A stretch of 64,000 nt of DNA, from positions 2,240,001 through 2,304,000 of the forward strand of contig OZ252149.1 of the NCBI GenBank assembly GCA_965248755.1. The letters run 5' to 3'. Both the position numbers and the translations under genes were made by a program. Below are positions 10,238 through 21,225 of the stretch, in pieces. The notes under the pieces are model-generated. The model saw only the letters and a list, made by a program, of their open reading frames with translations, was not told the DNA's origin and did not search any database. Origin of the DNA: Candidatus Latescibacterota bacterium (GTDB taxonomy: Bacteria; Latescibacterota; CBDEFO01). Numbering within the stretch: the first letter of the stretch is position 1; the number at the start of each line of letters is the position of its first letter.

Positions 10238-11992
10238 CTACTCAAGTATCCTGACGATATCGTTGAAGGTAACATAGATCATCAAGAATAGCAGCAGAGC
10301 CACTCCTACTTGCTGAGTAACCTCTTTCTGTCTTGTGGAAAGCTGTCGCCGGAAAATCCCTTCAAACGTCAGAAACATCAAATGTCCGCCGTCCAGAGCC
10401 GGTATGGGAAGTATATTCAAAATTCCTAAGTTAATACTTATAACGGCCATGAAGGTGAAAAGGTCCACAAGTCCCGACCGGGCGCTGTCTCCCGCCATCC
10501 GGGCTATAGTAATCGGTCCTCCTAACTCCTTCAGCGAGGCCCCGCCTACTATTAGCTTCTTGATATTAGCCCCAATAAACTTTGTTATAAGTAGAGTACG
10601 TCCTATACTCCCATGGGCTGCCTCCAGAAGTCCTATGGGAACATAAACAAAGTCTGGAGCAGGTCCTATCCCTATTATCCCATATTCCTGATATAGAGTC
10701 AGCTCCGCGACCTGCCCTTGGACACTCCTTTCGATCTCCACTATCCCCTCTAACTCTCCATTTTCCCTCACGATCGTGTATCTATCCGTCCGATTCTCCT
10801 CAATTTTCTCCATAGCCTCAGCGTAGACCTTCGACGCTGTGACGTTGAGGATTGCTAATGCCGCTTCTTTCTCATTTTGGGGACTTTCTGTAAACTCTGT
10901 CCGAATTGTCAGTTCTCCACCCTGGGATATGGAGCGCAACGATCTTTCCACCAGACTGGACATTAAGCCCTTTAAGCGATCTTCATCGCCACCTATCATC
11001 GGCATGTGAGCAAGAGATCTTGTAATTATCACCTCCTTATCTTTGATCTTCTCATCGAAAGAGGACAAAGTGCCTTCCACCAGTTTATTTATGTTTATGT
11101 ACCTTTCATCCGGTTCATAGACGACCTTTGTATTGCTCACAGCCGTTCCGGACATCTCCTTCCCGTTCCTTATCCACTCCAGGGTAATCTTTTCCATCGG
11201 CCTTTTTCTGATGCTCCTGCTCACGTCCGACCACTCTTTTATAGCTTCCCCCTCCACCGAAGTTATCACATCTCCACTTTCAAGCCCCATCTTTTGAGCG
11301 GGCCAGTCCTTTGAGACCGAACCAATCTTCGACGACACAAAAGGTTCTATCCCTAAGTCTGCTTCAAGATTAACACTTATGAATAATATCTCATCTCCTC
11401 TTTCTACCTCCACAGATGCCGTTCCTTTTGCGCTCTCTTTTTGGAATGCCTCTGCTATGTCATCCCAGTTTTCTACGCTCTTGCCGCCCACAGATAGTAT
11501 TTGATCTCCTGACTTAAAACCATCGGACTGAGCGGTGGAGTCCCAATCTATCCGGCTTATCACCGTCGTGTTATAGATCGTCTTACCCATAAAGCAGAGT
11601 ATCGTGAAAAATATCAGTATAGCTAAAAGGAAGTTCATAAGCGGTCCTGCAGCGATAACAGACATCCTCATCCAAATCGGCTTGGACATGAATTCCCACG
11701 GATCGCCGTGTACCTCCTCGTACCCTATGTCCGACATTCCTGCCAACTTGACGTATCCACCGAACGGAATCCACGAAATGCAGTACTCAGTTTCGCCTAC
11801 CTTAAAACCGAACATCTTGGGTGGAAATCCCAGGGAAAACCTCTCCACCTTGATCCCCGCTTTCTTAGCCACCAGAAAGTGTCCCAACTCGTGGAAGAAG
11901 ACCAGAACTCCCAATACGAATAGGAAGGGTATAAGGATATAAATAATGAAGGATATAACTGTAGTCATGTAGGATATAAGCATAGCCATCAT
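10238..11992 (-). CDS. rseP: RIP metalloprotease RseP with two PDZ domains and a ~135-aa insertion
   Basis: HELGH, FSLGF, IPFGGYV, AGPLMN, GGPITI, NILPIPALDGG; follows dxr. Confidence 0.96.
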   Translation of the reverse strand: MMAMLISYMTTVISFIIYILIPFLFVLGVLVFFHELGHFLVAKKAGIKVERFSLGFPPKMFGFKVGETEYCISWIPFGGYVKLAGMSDIGYEEVHGDPWEFMSKPIWMRMSVIAAGPLMNFLLAILIFFTILCFMGKTIYNTTVISRIDWDSTAQSDGFKSGDQILSVGGKSVENWDDIAEAFQKESAKGTASVEVERGDEILFISVNLEADLGIEPFVSSKIGSVSKDWPAQKMGLESGDVITSVEGEAIKEWSDVSRSIRKRPMEKITLEWIRNGKEMSGTAVSNTKVVYEPDERYININKLVEGTLSSFDEKIKDKEVIITRSLAHMPMIGGDEDRLKGLMSSLVERSLRSISQGGELTIRTEFTESPQNEKEAALAILNVTASKVYAEAMEKIEENRTDRYTIVRENGELEGIVEIERSVQGQVAELTLYQEYGIIGIGPAPDFVYVPIGLLEAAHGSIGRTLLITKFIGANIKKLIVGGASLKELGGPITIARMAGDSARSGLVDLFTFMAVISINLGILNILPIPALDGGHLMFLTFEGIFRRQLSTRQKEVTQQVGVALLLFLMIYVTFNDIVRILE

Positions 11993-15753: not shown

Positions 15754-17025
15754 TCAGTTACTGCTCAGCCAACTCATGGGATTTTGAGGTTCTTTGCCTT
15801 CGAGCAGTTCAAAGTGGAGCTTTGGACCGTCTAAAGACCCCGTCCGTCCTGAATAAGCCAGTATGTCTCCTGTATCTACCATATCCCCTTTGTTCACAAA
15901 CACTTCCGAAAGGTGGGCATAGACTGTAAGATATCTGTCCCCGTGATGGATTATGACAAACTTTCCGTAGCCTCTCATCCAATCTGTCATGACGACCTCG
16001 CCCGGCGCAACTGCTATCACTTCCGTCCCCTCTGCCACCTTAATGTCTATGCCCCTGTTGAAAGTAACGGTCTTTAGATTCTCATCCCTGTGCTTTCCGA
16101 AGCTACTCACAATCTTGCCTGCAACAGGCCAGAGCAGATTGCCTTGCATCTTGGCAAAATCCTCAAATCCGTCCCGTCCTTTTCTACTTTGTGCCTCTCT
16201 TTGAATCTCATCTAACAACTGGTTTATCTTCTGTTGCTGGAGGGCTATGGAGCGATTATGTTCATCTATTAACTGTTGTTTGAGCTCCATATCCTTCTGA
16301 ACGGAGACAAGGAGCCTTGTATGTTCTTCTCTGCTCACCTTGAGTCTTTTGTTCTCCCTTATCTTCTCCCGTTCAATCTCCACCTTTTCTTTATGGTCAG
16401 TCTCCAGTCTGCTCTTGGCCTCCTCTATCCTGGATTTGTGGAGTTTTATCTTTTCGTAATTATGTCTGTCCTGGGACGTTACTAAAGAGAGATACTTAGA
16501 CCTCCTCAAAAGATCGGTAAAAGAACTTGAGGATAGAATAATTTCAAGTCCGCCCAGTTTCCCCTTTTTGTAAATCTCCCGTAGTCTGTCCGACATCGCC
16601 TTTTCATATTGGGAGCGTCTCTCTTCTGTCTTTTTCAACGACGACTTTGTACTTTTTATCTGTGATTTAAGTTCCCACTCCTGCCTCTTTAAGAGGGCTA
16701 TGTATTTCTCAACAGAGTCTATCTCTCTTTCCATAGCGTCTATGTTATCCCCGATCTGACCTTCCACTCCTTTGAGGCTTGCCACCTGTCTTCTGTTCTC
16801 CTCCACTTCCCTCCGGAGATCTTCCTGCTCAGTCTTTCTCTCTTCCACCTTTCTTTTGAGTTCATCTGTGCGCAGTACAGAGCTGACATAAGAAGCAGAG
16901 AGAAGGATCAGACAAAGGCTCAAAAGGAAGGATAAGCTCCTTTGTTTTCCTCTATGACTTCTGGAATCATAAGGGCAAGTGCACAGCTTTTCCTCAACTG
17001 GTTGCTGGTTTCTAACTTTTTCCAT
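15754..17025 (-). CDS. envC: Murein hydrolase activator EnvC-like (coiled coil + M23 domain)
   Basis: Long coiled coil; WPVAG, NRGIDI, YAHL, LHFE; downstream of ftsEX. Confidence 0.9.
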   Translation of the reverse strand: MEKVRNQQPVEEKLCTCPYDSRSHRGKQRSLSFLLSLCLILLSASYVSSVLRTDELKRKVEERKTEQEDLRREVEENRRQVASLKGVEGQIGDNIDAMEREIDSVEKYIALLKRQEWELKSQIKSTKSSLKKTEERRSQYEKAMSDRLREIYKKGKLGGLEIILSSSSFTDLLRRSKYLSLVTSQDRHNYEKIKLHKSRIEEAKSRLETDHKEKVEIEREKIRENKRLKVSREEHTRLLVSVQKDMELKQQLIDEHNRSIALQQQKINQLLDEIQREAQSRKGRDGFEDFAKMQGNLLWPVAGKIVSSFGKHRDENLKTVTFNRGIDIKVAEGTEVIAVAPGEVVMTDWMRGYGKFVIIHHGDRYLTVYAHLSEVFVNKGDMVDTGDILAYSGRTGSLDGPKLHFELLEGKEPQNPMSWLSSN

Positions 17026-17041
17026 TTGAACTGTCTCTCCT

Positions 17042-17911
17042 CTACGAGAGGACGTTTAGAGCCTTCCTTAGGGAGGTCTGACTTCCGATTCCCCCTAAAA
17101 TCGCTCCGAGGGCGACCATAGAAAAAGAGACGAAAAGGGCCGGATACAATTTTAACGGGAGTTCAGGCAAATTGGAATAAGTCCACCTGTATATTAAAAA
17201 GAGCAAAGTGCCTGCTGCTATTCCTCCTGTTAATCCCTGGATTATCCCTCCCACCAGGAAGTGTCCTCTTATAAACCGATCCGTAGCCCCCACAAGCTTC
17301 ATAATCACTATGGACTCGCGCCGGGACAACACAGTCAATTTTACTGTATTGGATGTCACGAAGACGCACGCAGCTAAGATGATCAATCCTATAGTCGAAC
17401 CTGCTATAAAAAGGATAGTCACGATGCGATCTAACTTTCCGATCCAGTCCACTCCGTAGTGTACATCCTCTACTCCCTCTATCTTCTCTAGTTGAGAGGC
17501 TACCCTGGTGGCATAATCCAATGTCCTGAATTGATCTACGAGCGTTATCCTTATGGAGGCGGGTAGAGGATTGACTCCGACCGCATCGAGCAGGTCATCT
17601 CCGAACTCGGCTCGGAACTCCTCGGAAGCCCTTTGCTTATCTATATATCTGGCTTGCTCCACGCCGTTTATCTTCTCCACGTCGGCCTTTATCTGTATAG
17701 CTCCTTTGATGTCCACTTCATCGCTCAGGTAAGCCTCTATCTCCACGCGCTTTTTTATATCTTCTACCAAATTGTACGCGCTGATAGAGACGAGTCCAAA
17801 GATCCCCAAGACCAAAAGAGAAATAGCCATTATCCCAGAAGAGACCAGGCTCATCATCCAGGACCGCCGAAGATCTGAAAGTGCCTCCTTAAATACGTAA
17901 CCCAGACTCAT
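17042..17911 (-). CDS. ftsX: Cell division permease FtsX
   Basis: NPLPASI, SNTVKL...RRESIVIMKLVGAT; ATG 17911 preferred, TTG 17959 possible. Confidence 0.93.
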   Translation of the reverse strand: MSLGYVFKEALSDLRRSWMMSLVSSGIMAISLLVLGIFGLVSISAYNLVEDIKKRVEIEAYLSDEVDIKGAIQIKADVEKINGVEQARYIDKQRASEEFRAEFGDDLLDAVGVNPLPASIRITLVDQFRTLDYATRVASQLEKIEGVEDVHYGVDWIGKLDRIVTILFIAGSTIGLIILAACVFVTSNTVKLTVLSRRESIVIMKLVGATDRFIRGHFLVGGIIQGLTGGIAAGTLLFLIYRWTYSNLPELPLKLYPALFVSFSMVALGAILGGIGSQTSLRKALNVLS

Positions 17912-17968
17912 TCTTGGAGTGGGGGAGAAGATAAGTTTCTCGTCGAAGAATCTTTGCAACGAACAGGC

Positions 17969-18616
17969 TTAGCAGAGCCTGCCCCCCTTGATCCTTACGA
18001 CTTTGCCGTTGGATTGGTCCAGAAGTCCTTCATCGTGGGTGGCGACAAGAACAGCCGTCCCCTTATGATTGATCTTGCGCAGTATATCCATTATATCGCG
18101 CTTTGCATCGGCATCCAGATTTCCTGTAGGTTCGTCTGCCAAAAGCGCGAACGGTTCCAGAGCCAGAGCCCTTGCTATTGCGACTTTTTGCTGTTCTCCT
18201 CCGGACAGGTGGCCAGGCAGAGAATTCCTTTTGTGTCCCAGGTCCACCAAGGACAGCGACTGAATTGCCCTCCTTTTAGCCTCCTTTGCCTTTGTTCCTG
18301 TCACTCTCAGGGCAAAAACCACGTTCTCAAATACATTCCTGTCCTTTAAGAGCTTGAAATCCTGAAAGATCACTCCCACTTTCCGCCTGACTAAAGGTAT
18401 GTGCCTCTTTTTTAGAGTCGCTGAATCGTAGTCTCCGACTATGACTCTGCCCGATGTGGGACGCTCGTCGAAGTGAACCAATCTTATTATCGTGCTCTTG
18501 CCCGCTCCGACGGGACCGAATAAAAAGACCATCTGGCCTTTTTCCACGCTGAGGCTTATATCCTCTAATATAGCCGATTCCCCTATGTACTTTGAGACGC
18601 CTTCTAATTTGATCAT
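17969..18616 (-). CDS. ftsE: Cell division ATP-binding protein FtsE
   Basis: [32 protein letters not shown]. Confidence 0.95.
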
Positions 18617-18686
18617 CTTTTCGCCTTCACAAATGTGAGTTGTCCTCTTTTCCTATACCAATATTCTTGCGAAACCCATTCATTTT

Positions 18687-20429
18687 TTATATCGGAAAAT
18701 CGTCTTTAGCTCCTCGGTCCTCCTTGATTACACATTGGACTTCCAGATTATGCGTGAATATTTCTGACAGCACAGCTTGCAGAGTCTTTTTATTCCTCTT
18801 GACCTGGGTTGCGCAGAAGGCATTGTCGCTTTGAAAGGATAAGGTCAACACACCATCAGTTATACTCTCAGGCCGTCCGTCAGTAGAAAGAAAAGTCGCC
18901 AGGGATATACTTTTCTTTTTCACTTTGTCTAAAATTTTCTGCCAGTTATTCTGAAGATTTTCTAAGGTTGTCTCTATGAGATTCCTCTCAACTTCTTCGG
19001 GCCTAATAAGAAGATTAGAAATCTGTTGGAAAATGTTTGATATATCTTTTATTTGGATCGTTAGAATATACTTATTTTCAGAAATCTCTTTAACTCCATT
19101 TATGAATGGGAGCTTTAATAGACTAATAATGTACTGAATATCTTCAGGTTCTATTTGAAGTTCTTCTATCTTTTCTCTTCCTGCTAAACTATCAAAGGTA
19201 AAGTAACCCAATTTCCCATCTTGTAAAGATTGCATTTCTTGGATAATTACTTTGAATTGTTCTAATAAATTTCTTTGGGAAAGATTTTGAGTTAGTAAAT
19301 ACTCCAGTTGCGAGCTTATATCACCGCTACCAGTAAATATATCTTTTAATTCAGTTAAGGTGAAAGGGAATTTAGAATGTGTCTCTACAAGATTTATTAA
19401 ATCTTCTGTTTTTAGCAAGGAGACACCTTTCCTATTTGCTCGTTGCTCTAAATTTCCTCCAGAAAACCTTGGTCCTATTACAACTACGAAATCGGCTTTA
19501 TTTTTCTTTTTATGGTCTTCTAACGAATCCCAATCTATCTGTTGATCTGTAATTTTACCTGATTTACTTGTTTTGCCATCAATATTAACTTTGAATGACT
19601 CTTGACCGATATTTGCTGTAAGTAGGACATCAGTATTCCCCTTACCTCCAATAAGTTCACCCTGGAATCCTAAAAGATTGAAAGCGTGTTTTATTGCTTC
19701 TTCAAAATCGGTTGGAGAGTCACTCTTAAATTGTCTTTCCTTTAAGCCTTCAATAATTGAGTTTGCTTCCATTCTTACCATTTCATCCTTTTCTTCAGGG
19801 GGAGCTGCTCCTTGTTCTTTCAATCTGAATAATCCTGTTCCCACTTTCACAAATAAGGATTTTTCTCCTTTTTGCTTTATATCAGTATAAATTGTCGCCC
19901 CCATCGTTGCATCAGGAGTTTTACCATTAGATGCAATCAGTCTTTCCTTTAATGCAATTTGAGTAATTTCCTTTGCTGAGAGCGGTCTTTTCTCTTTTTT
20001 CAGAACATTATACGCAGCTTCTTTGAAATTCCTAACTATGGATCTGCCCTTAGGCTTCGATTTCCTGCCTTCGAATACCTTGGAGACTCTTACTTCTATC
20101 TCATCCGCTAATAAGGGCTTAGTAACATAATCGCAAGCACCATCTTGCATCGCCTCGACGGCGCTGTTTACCGTTCCATATGCTGCCATTATTATCACAT
20201 CTGTGGAGGGCGAAATCTCTTTGGCCGCGTATAATACTTCCATCCCATCTGCATCCGGCATCTTCAAATCTGTCAATATCAGATCGTAGGAATTTGATTT
20301 TATTTTGTTTATAGCTTGCTTTCGATCCTCTGCAAGATCAATCTGGAAACCTTTTCTTTCTAAGACTTCTTTGAGAAAATCTCTCATAAGTGCCTCATCG
20401 TCTACTACAAGTATGTAGCCTTCTGACAT
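18687..20429 (-). CDS. Fusion: response-regulator receiver + HARE-HTH + Mrr-like PD-(D/E)xK endonuclease + DnaX(tau) C-terminal-like domain
   Basis: ILVVDDE...LTDLKMP...YVTKP (REC); FKEAAYNVL...GKTPDATMGATIYTDI...GLFRL (HARE-HTH); FEEAI...LGF...TDVLL...IDGKT (nuclease); WQKILDKVKKKSISLATFL...LTLSF (DnaX-C-like); RBS AAGGAG. Confidence 0.85.
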   Translation of the reverse strand: MSEGYILVVDDEALMRDFLKEVLERKGFQIDLAEDRKQAINKIKSNSYDLILTDLKMPDADGMEVLYAAKEISPSTDVIIMAAYGTVNSAVEAMQDGACDYVTKPLLADEIEVRVSKVFEGRKSKPKGRSIVRNFKEAAYNVLKKEKRPLSAKEITQIALKERLIASNGKTPDATMGATIYTDIKQKGEKSLFVKVGTGLFRLKEQGAAPPEEKDEMVRMEANSIIEGLKERQFKSDSPTDFEEAIKHAFNLLGFQGELIGGKGNTDVLLTANIGQESFKVNIDGKTSKSGKITDQQIDWDSLEDHKKKNKADFVVVIGPRFSGGNLEQRANRKGVSLLKTEDLINLVETHSKFPFTLTELKDIFTGSGDISSQLEYLLTQNLSQRNLLEQFKVIIQEMQSLQDGKLGYFTFDSLAGREKIEELQIEPEDIQYIISLLKLPFINGVKEISENKYILTIQIKDISNIFQQISNLLIRPEEVERNLIETTLENLQNNWQKILDKVKKKSISLATFLSTDGRPESITDGVLTLSFQSDNAFCATQVKRNKKTLQAVLSEIFTHNLEVQCVIKEDRGAKDDFPI

Positions 20430-20463
20430 GTCTGCTCCTTTTCCAGCTTATAACGATAGATAA

Positions 20464-21225
20464 TCACCTCAACACAAAATGTATCCGGTCGGAGTTCTTT
20501 GAGGCGGGTCTGAGGCTGAAATCGTCGAATATACCCAAAATGTCGAATTCCGACTCTCGCACGGCCTTCTCTATTTCGTCTTTGCTGTATATCCTCTGCC
20601 TGTGCGTCTCTACAAACGTTTCATCCGATCTGTCGAAGCCTATCTTGAAGTGATTGTTCTGTATCTTCGTCTCTGGGTCATAGAAGCTGTGTCTGCTGTA
20701 CGAAAAACCATCTCCTTTTGCCTTACTGGTGTAGTCTCTAAAATACAGAAGCGAATTTCTCTCCATGCAGATGTCGAATATGAATATCCCGGCCGGCTCC
20801 AAAATTTGTCTGATGCTCTTCAGGGCCTTTTTGACCTCTTCTATCTCCATCAGATAGTTCAAACTGTCGTACAGGCACAGCACCGCCTCAAAAGAGCGGC
20901 ATTTCTTAAGGTCCCGAATATCACCGCAGGACAGATCGATTTGCACTCCTGCCTTTTGAGATTTTACCCTTGCCACCTCGACCATAGACCAAGATTCATC
21001 TATGCCTGATGTGTTGTAACCCCTGCTGTGGAGCTCCAGAGCCATAGTCCCTGTGCCACACGCAACGTCCAGAATATCTGAAGGATTAAGATCAAAGTGT
21101 GAAAAGACCGATTCTATGTAATCTGTCCATCTTTTGTAATCAAGGTGGCTCATCACAAAGTCGTATATTTCGGCTAATCGGCTGTAAGGTTCGCAATCCA
21201 CCTTTTTTCTGGATTTGATGCTCAC
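20464..21225 (-). CDS. Class I SAM-dependent methyltransferase
   Basis: LDVACGTG, GIDESWSM, CLYDSLNY, GIFIFD. Confidence 0.92.
   Translation of the reverse strand: MSIKSRKKVDCEPYSRLAEIYDFVMSHLDYKRWTDYIESVFSHFDLNPSDILDVACGTGTMALELHSRGYNTSGIDESWSMVEVARVKSQKAGVQIDLSCGDIRDLKKCRSFEAVLCLYDSLNYLMEIEEVKKALKSIRQILEPAGIFIFDICMERNSLLYFRDYTSKAKGDGFSYSRHSFYDPETKIQNNHFKIGFDRSDETFVETHRQRIYSKDEIEKAVRESEFDILGIFDDFSLRPASKNSDRIHFVLR

Follow-up and report, generated by a model that had tools for sequence, protein, structure and literature searches.

The open reading frame at positions 18687..20429 (minus strand) of the window, the stretch of 64,000 nucleotides that was analysed, is a three-way chimera of the receiver of a sigma-54 regulator, a HARE-HTH-nuclease core and the tail of dnaX. 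The encoded protein (P0001, 580 amino acids) is a methyltransferase-free nuclease with an intact catalytic motif, which stands in a defence slot and has been rebuilt with two host domains. As described in an earlier note on this DNA, the ORF is uninterrupted and has its own ribosome-binding site, AAGGAG, 5 nt upstream of the ATG. The four domains claimed there were all detected by Pfam above the curated cut-offs and in the same order: Response_reg at residues 6-114 (E 1e-27), HARE-HTH (PF05066) at 135-205 (E 2e-21), Mrr_cat at 238-347 (E 4e-5) and DnaX_C (PF20964) at 486-569 (E 7e-13). The HTH-nuclease middle was indeed more AT-rich than the ends. GC content was 42% in the receiver, 38% in the HARE-HTH, 35% in the nuclease, 30% in the helical/winged-helix part and 41% in the tail (genome, 48.9%); GC3 was 0.24-0.28 in the middle (HARE-HTH 0.28, nuclease 0.24, helical/winged-helix part 0.24) versus 0.42-0.45 at the ends (receiver 0.42, tail 0.45).

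The ORF was present in single contigs of four of four sequencing runs, with no differing letters; the runs come from one sample and one study, probably the source sample, and are not independent samplings. Because these contigs spanned the ORF without differences and crossed every joint between the domains, an assembly chimera, an objection foreseen in the earlier note, was ruled out; moreover, identity to the donor genes is 80-85%, not 100%. Insertion of the nuclease into a pre-existing REC-DnaX_C gene was likewise ruled out: each donor is a separate, intact gene, at a distance of 1 Mb or 2.2 Mb, and no such gene is present in the one other genome of the genus, G001. In the protein search the fusion was found as one sequence on one contig, making the exact architecture a singleton, and none of the best 120 of 1245 matches covered more than 66% of the query. 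No described system with this architecture was found in the literature searched, in line with the earlier note. Pieces of single-copy host genes of this kind were carried by one of the 206 low-GC ORFs of the genome (those of at least 200 amino acids and below 44% GC, out of 3832), and no genome-wide process of chimera formation was found among these 206. Promoter and terminator scans at the fusion gene gave only chance-level results.

The 5' part of the gene (20062..20440, minus strand), comprising the ribosome-binding site and the receiver domain (residues 1-123), is identical at 321 of 379 nt (85%) to the gene of a 456-amino acid sigma-54 regulator, which is intact in the same genome (G000:C1:3440549-3441919) and adjoins genes for an AtoS-like kinase, motA, motB and flgF. 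The similarity covers the first 123 codons of the donor and 11 upstream bases, and the borrowed DNA starts exactly at the Shine-Dalgarno sequence. The G001 orthologue of the regulator (G001:C7:34157-36050) is split after approximately codon 24 by an insert of ~1.5 kb, probably an IS element.

The receiver had been described as a complete NtrC-type domain. Its phosphorylation pocket (D10, D11, the phospho-acceptor D54 and K104) is kept, and helix 1 is nearly unchanged from the donor, but the domain is not fully canonical. The switch Thr/Ser after beta-4 is lost (T82A; the donor has Thr, and T or S is found in 33 of 36 outgroup rows), G36R introduces an Arg present in none of 35 outgroup rows, and K95Q, F106L and S107L are further changes. 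The Pfam score is 97 bits for the fusion receiver versus 109 bits for the donor. Since both retain 21 of 25 conserved columns, so that the loss is no greater than the donor's, degeneration of the receiver is no more than suggested. The PADLOC models SduA and PD-T4-6 also match the fusion receiver, the SduA match being limited to residues 6-63. A 10-codon junction linker follows (20031..20060, minus strand); its last codon, Arg133, reads AGG at the position of the ATG of the parent family (see below). With the parent start codon gone, the receiver piece now supplies the translation start. Origin of the linker from the parent's 5' untranslated region was unsupported (326-1600 of 2000 shuffles scored equally high).

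The core consists of a HARE-HTH winged helix (residues 135-205; 19815..20027), a candidate reader of DNA or its modification, a PD-(D/E)xK nuclease domain with a predicted FokI-like fold (residues ~223-370; 19320..19763; Pfam Mrr_cat and the parent model), and a region (residues ~371-477; 18999..19319), all on the minus strand. The last region, called helical in the earlier note, does contain a helical part, but according to the parent model it combines a long helix with a winged helix, with winged-helix matches at parent residues 259-327. Core residues 134-477 correspond to the N-terminal ~345 residues of a stand-alone HARE-HTH/FokI-like/winged-helix family of ~495 amino acids (490-498), to whose top members among the best 120 of 1245 matches the core is 70-81% identical. 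Hosts of the family, among the same matches, are an archaeon and unrelated bacteria; the fusion's own genome has no paralogue of the core. The Mrr-like nuclease had been credited with apparent catalytic residues, and the candidates E243, D267, D284 and K286 do fall on conserved columns of the family. The fusion retains 110 of 113 conserved core columns, and carries three private changes, D265N, L364I and D377Y, present in none of 72 relatives. Most parent-family relatives extend 125-170 residues past the end of the match: a C-terminal domain of ~140 amino acids, found in most of the 119 relatives listed (best of 1245 matches), is absent from the fusion.

In the model of the parent (pLDDT 85.7) the HARE-HTH, the nuclease and the helix with its winged helix are followed by a disordered linker (347-366) and then by an additional mixed domain, which was barely covered by the fold search. 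This search matched the model to FokI (Z 15.4, rmsd 12.8 over 216 aligned residues) and BspD6I (Z 14.1, rmsd 3.1 over 163). No solved structure related by sequence to the 495-residue family and, in the literature searched, no named description of it were found. Precomputed PF09254 was present on most relatives among the matches listed, and the N-terminus varies among family members (HARE-HTH, Mrr_N or none). As read from the sequence, some of the genes are solitary, and others have type I RM, GmrSD-like, SIR2-like or integrase-like genes as neighbours. The wider family (P0002-P0120, 410-530 amino acids), with a FokI-like nuclease and two winged-helix-type regions, is widespread and apparently unnamed; its archaeal and bacterial members are up to ~87% identical.

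A fusion that is a singleton showing no sign of selection had been named as a further objection. The exact fusion is a singleton, but codon comparisons indicate that the core is under purifying selection, slightly relaxed. Its dN/dS was 0.18-0.24 against seven of eight relatives and 0.11 against the most distant one; on the fusion's side it was 0.22-0.34, compared with mostly 0.13-0.18 among relatives. In the fusion-side splits (dS 0.2-0.36) the upper bounds of dN/dS were 0.37-0.38 in three of four and 0.86 in the fourth. The two borrowed pieces, compared with the host genes, had dS values of 0.55 and 0.85 and dN/dS of 0.16 and 0.13, respectively (range 0.13-0.17); these low ratios may have built up before the fusion, while the pieces still belonged to native genes of a sister species outside the sampling.

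The C-terminal segment (residues 478-575; 18705..18998, minus strand) is the KH-fold C-terminal domain of DnaX (tau), identical at 233 of 290 nt (80%) to the intact host dnaX (G000:C1:24792-26447). This bears out the tail of ~85 residues resembling the gamma/tau C-terminus that had been noticed earlier, and removes the objection that the tail might have no DnaX similarity. Its Pfam DnaX_C score (48.9 bits) is above that of the host DnaX (43.9 bits). The whole folded core is kept, whereas a disordered stretch and the terminal FDGE motif, which lies in the missing last ~25 residues, are dropped; the fusion tail ends at profile position 137 of 172, whereas 116 of 120 native DnaX matches reach at least 165. 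The FDGE motif probably marks the terminal amphipathic helix that binds the polymerase, equivalent to F631-L635 of E. coli. E. coli tau is reported to bind alpha via its last residues, the free C-domain being lethal and a form lacking 11 residues not (available text of PMC1888804). The model of the host counterpart of the tail matched DnaA domain I, DciA (in complex with DnaB) and E. coli tau domain V (5FKU_E/2AYA). Each joint of the chimera coincides with a domain edge. The disordered linker of the parent begins at the 3' joint, where a short stretch is common to the parent and dnaX.

The gene occupies a variable slot (18630..20463) extending from the stop codon of a methyltransferase gene to the ribosome-binding site of ftsE. 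The upstream flank (20464..21225, minus strand) encodes a housekeeping class I SAM methyltransferase, by Pfam of the small-molecule type and not a DNA methyltransferase, and downstream are ftsE (17969..18616, minus strand; ORF list and Pfam), ftsX and an envC-like gene; the neighbours thus include neither a DNA methyltransferase nor a kinase, as stated before. The earlier note had proposed to check whether the locus is empty in related genomes. G001, which matches the window to 99% upstream and 94-90% downstream of the slot, carries between the same boundaries a different insert of 1.9 kb encoding a GmrSD nuclease (L023:4117-5805 (+), G001:C8; PADLOC HEC-06, E 8e-209). No match to the core was found in G001 (96% complete). 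Both flanking genes of this defence slot, between methyltransferase and ftsE, stay in place when its content changes. Other sequence connects 18629 to 20464 in a contig of runs X3 and X4. Since the X3 contig is exactly as long (1990) as the G001 insert and the matched flanks together, the fusion and GmrSD alleles probably coexist in one sample, the identity of the insert being judged from length. Relative to G001, dS rises across the slot from 0.025 in the methyltransferase to 0.27 in ftsX, as expected if either allele came by homologous recombination from a more distant congener; the downstream divergence is likely a recombination tract. The envC-like and ftsX genes (15754-17959) had dS of 0.20-0.27 to G001, compared with 0.02 for genes upstream of the slot.

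When the tail was compared with 1.84 billion representatives, 99 matches were obtained. The 54 longer ones were scanned: 44 had other DnaX domains, nine were DnaX_C-only fragments, and one, P0172 of Paenibacillus oryzisoli, had two tandem DnaX_C copies followed by a PLD domain matching Mokosh MkoB (PADLOC). Its repeats are ~45% identical to DnaX proteins, many from Paenibacillus. Both keep the terminal motif, so truncation of the tail is not universal. In the 168 genomes of the fusion's own phylum, DnaX_C matched in 150 and twice in two, G000 and G103; with a lineage DnaX profile two matches were again found in two of 125 genomes. The second match in G103 is the end of a SIR2-like protein of 461 amino acids (L052:4970-6355 (-), G103:C11). 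This tail is below the Pfam DnaX_C cut-off (23 versus 26.2 bits) and scored 42.5 bits on the DnaX profile versus 15.5 on a four-sequence DnaA profile; it also stops short of the terminal motif. Three SIR2 relatives of 343-361 amino acids have no DnaX_C tail. The G103 gene has a GC content of 40% in a 63% GC context and is located near IS genes. DnaX_C is thus fused to three unrelated effectors (nuclease, SIR2 and PLD), each fusion a singleton.

Among 301 genomes of Bacillota and 201 of the Neomarinimicrobiota phylum, in which those with two matches were inspected, no second copy of DnaX_C was a fusion. In four of the 301 Bacillota genomes the second match, as read from the sequence, was DnaA domain I and not a fusion; this cross-matching of Pfam DnaX_C in some Bacillota (L055-L062) is a trap for domain-architecture screens. 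A plasmid search gave one weak match (E 0.1) with no Pfam support, a phage search with P0172 gave no match, and ESM Atlas yielded only hypothetical or known-family clusters. Neither DnaX_C on an immune effector nor a phage protein binding tau domain V was found described in the accessible part of the literature.

A defence role of the fusion protein is likely, and there is about an even chance that the captured tau core is functional. The occurrence of DnaX_C on other effectors raised the idea of a decoy. With somewhat less than even probability, the protein is a defence nuclease whose captured tau domain serves as bait or as a sensor of the state of the replisome. In favour of this are the defence-like neighbours of the parent family, the alternation with GmrSD in the slot, the conserved core, the joints at domain edges, the Pfam score of the tail, the two other DnaX_C fusions and the E. 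coli data on the tau C-domain; against it count the singleton status of all three fusions, the terminal motif kept in P0172, the three private core changes with slightly relaxed selection and the sub-threshold score of the SIR2 tail. It would have begun as a single-gene anti-phage or anti-plasmid nuclease of the mobile, methyltransferase-free HARE-HTH/FokI-like family, which two in-frame fusions, both illegitimate, remodelled in this lineage. One would have added, at the 5' end, the sigma-54 regulator's ribosome-binding site and receiver, which provide the start of translation and may offer a surface for dimerisation. In the other, at the 3' end, the native C-terminal DNA-binding-type domain would have been swapped for the folded host tau core minus its polymerase-binding end, a loss that may avoid poisoning the cell's own polymerase. 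FokI-type domains cut as dimers. Proteins attacking the host replisome might be baited or sensed by the tau core, and this binding would pair or activate the FokI-type domains, leading to DNA cleavage. More generally, it is possible, but doubtful, that bacteria repeatedly graft their own tau C-terminal domain onto unrelated immune effectors as an integrated decoy for replisome-targeting phage proteins; this gene would then be a recent capture, its donors still recognisable in the DNA, and the receiver perhaps a bait too. Of the suggestion in the earlier note that a defence protein uses host-derived domains as decoys, the defence-type nuclease, the ends from the lineage's own genes and the defence slot were found, while the decoy itself is an idea raised by the recurrence of DnaX_C.

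The borrowed ends could also be passengers on an ordinary modification-dependent or type IIS-like restriction nuclease, in which the core works, the receiver is kept for its ribosome-binding site and start, and the tau piece caps a truncated gene. Replacement of the parent ATG by DNA beginning exactly at a Shine-Dalgarno sequence, the T82A and G36R changes, microhomology at the 3' joint as in chance recombination, the variable N-termini of the parent family and the singleton status all fit this explanation, which we hold to be possible rather than probable: whole folded domains were captured in frame twice, each time at a domain edge, such pieces occur in just one of 206 low-GC ORFs, and DnaX_C is present on two other effector types, all of which speaks against it. 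A chimera that is inactive or decaying, its frame not yet disrupted, would account for the missing C-terminal domain, for the loss of two invariant aspartates (D265N and D377Y) and for a dN/dS higher on the fusion's side than the 0.13-0.16 typical among relatives, but is very unlikely in view of the open 580-codon frame, the retained catalytic residues and a dN/dS that stays far under 1 in all but one of the four splits.

The other two mechanisms considered in the earlier note came out weaker than proposed, since the FDGE motif is missing and the switch threonine is lost. The tau core might dock at forks via DnaB or a residual alpha contact, and the nuclease would then cut replicating foreign DNA or abort a hijacked fork. 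In favour are the fold matches of the tail given above, among them DciA bound to DnaB, the suggestion that tau domain V affects DnaB as well (available text of PMC11869525), and the terminal motif retained in P0172; this motif is, however, cut off in the fusion and gone from the SIR2 fusion, the E. coli form lacking 11 residues binds alpha at ~0.9 mM (available text of PMC1888804), and a nuclease on the cell's own forks would demand tight control, making tethering unlikely. Still less probable is a nuclease gated by phosphorylation, in which the donor's kinase or cross-talk would phosphorylate D54 and the dimerising receivers would bring the nuclease domains together, a mechanism proposed for Shedu type 1F. 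Receiver-nuclease fusions are known in Shedu (main text of bioRxiv 2023.08.10.552793), the SduA and PD-T4-6 models match the receiver, the pocket and helix 1 are preserved and the AtoS-like kinase is present in the genome. Against this, there is no kinase beside the fusion gene, and the five substitutions are accompanied by the lower Pfam score.

HARE-HTH/restriction-endonuclease fusions were reportedly described by Aravind and Iyer in 2012. The fusion shares with HARE-HTH/winged-helix type IV endonucleases the HARE-HTH reader-type domain, the PD-(D/E)xK nuclease, the extra winged helix and the lack of a partner methyltransferase, and differs in having a receiver in front and a tau domain in place of the native C-terminal domain; in the available text on these enzymes the reading of modified DNA by HARE-HTH is a proposal only (PMC11037411). 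With its intact catalytic motif and no cognate DNA methyltransferase in the locus, the fusion resembles type IV enzymes, its modification dependence being putative. The cleavage domains of the type IIS enzymes FokI and BspD6I are the best structural match of the catalytic domain as modelled. Unlike in FokI, the catalytic domain is central, and there is no cognate methyltransferase and no FokI recognition domain (none by Pfam in P0001 or P0002). Shedu type 1, especially 1F, is similarly a single-gene PD-(D/E)xK nuclease with swappable add-ons including a receiver, whereas the fusion has no DUF4263 (Pfam) and no adjacent kinase, and its add-ons were copied recently from host genes; the main text of the Shedu paper makes no mention of DnaX (bioRxiv 2023.08.10.552793). 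The fusion belongs neither to Shedu nor to FokI systems. The GmrSD/BrxU protein (PADLOC HEC-06) of the sister genome is a stand-alone defence nuclease in the same slot, but is unrelated; only the locus is common.

Plant NLR receptors contain integrated decoy domains. As in these, a copy of a host protein domain is fused into a probable immune protein and appears to recur on unrelated scaffolds; here the system is bacterial, the domain is fused straight to the effector and the pathogen ligand is hypothetical. A tau domain that does act as bait would be the bacterial equivalent of the plant decoys. It would also imply that phages make replisome inhibitors of a class not yet described, and would give a simple rule for genome mining, according to which core-gene domains on effectors mark phage targets. 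The decoy hypothesis is testable and possibly general. Even if the domain is not bait, the gene is an unusually clear snapshot of a defence nuclease gaining host-gene domains, and shows how such a nuclease moves through a slot that takes one gene and is flanked by housekeeping genes, two alleles probably occurring together in one population.

The surrounding housekeeping region contained other irregularities. In G001 the run is broken between mfd and the peptidyl-prolyl isomerase gene by a transposase-like ORF (L014:2-712). In an RseP-like protease of 584 amino acids encoded in the window (10238-11992), an internal stretch of ~130 amino acids resembles, as read from the sequence, a fragment of a histidine-kinase ATPase and is possibly another inserted host piece.
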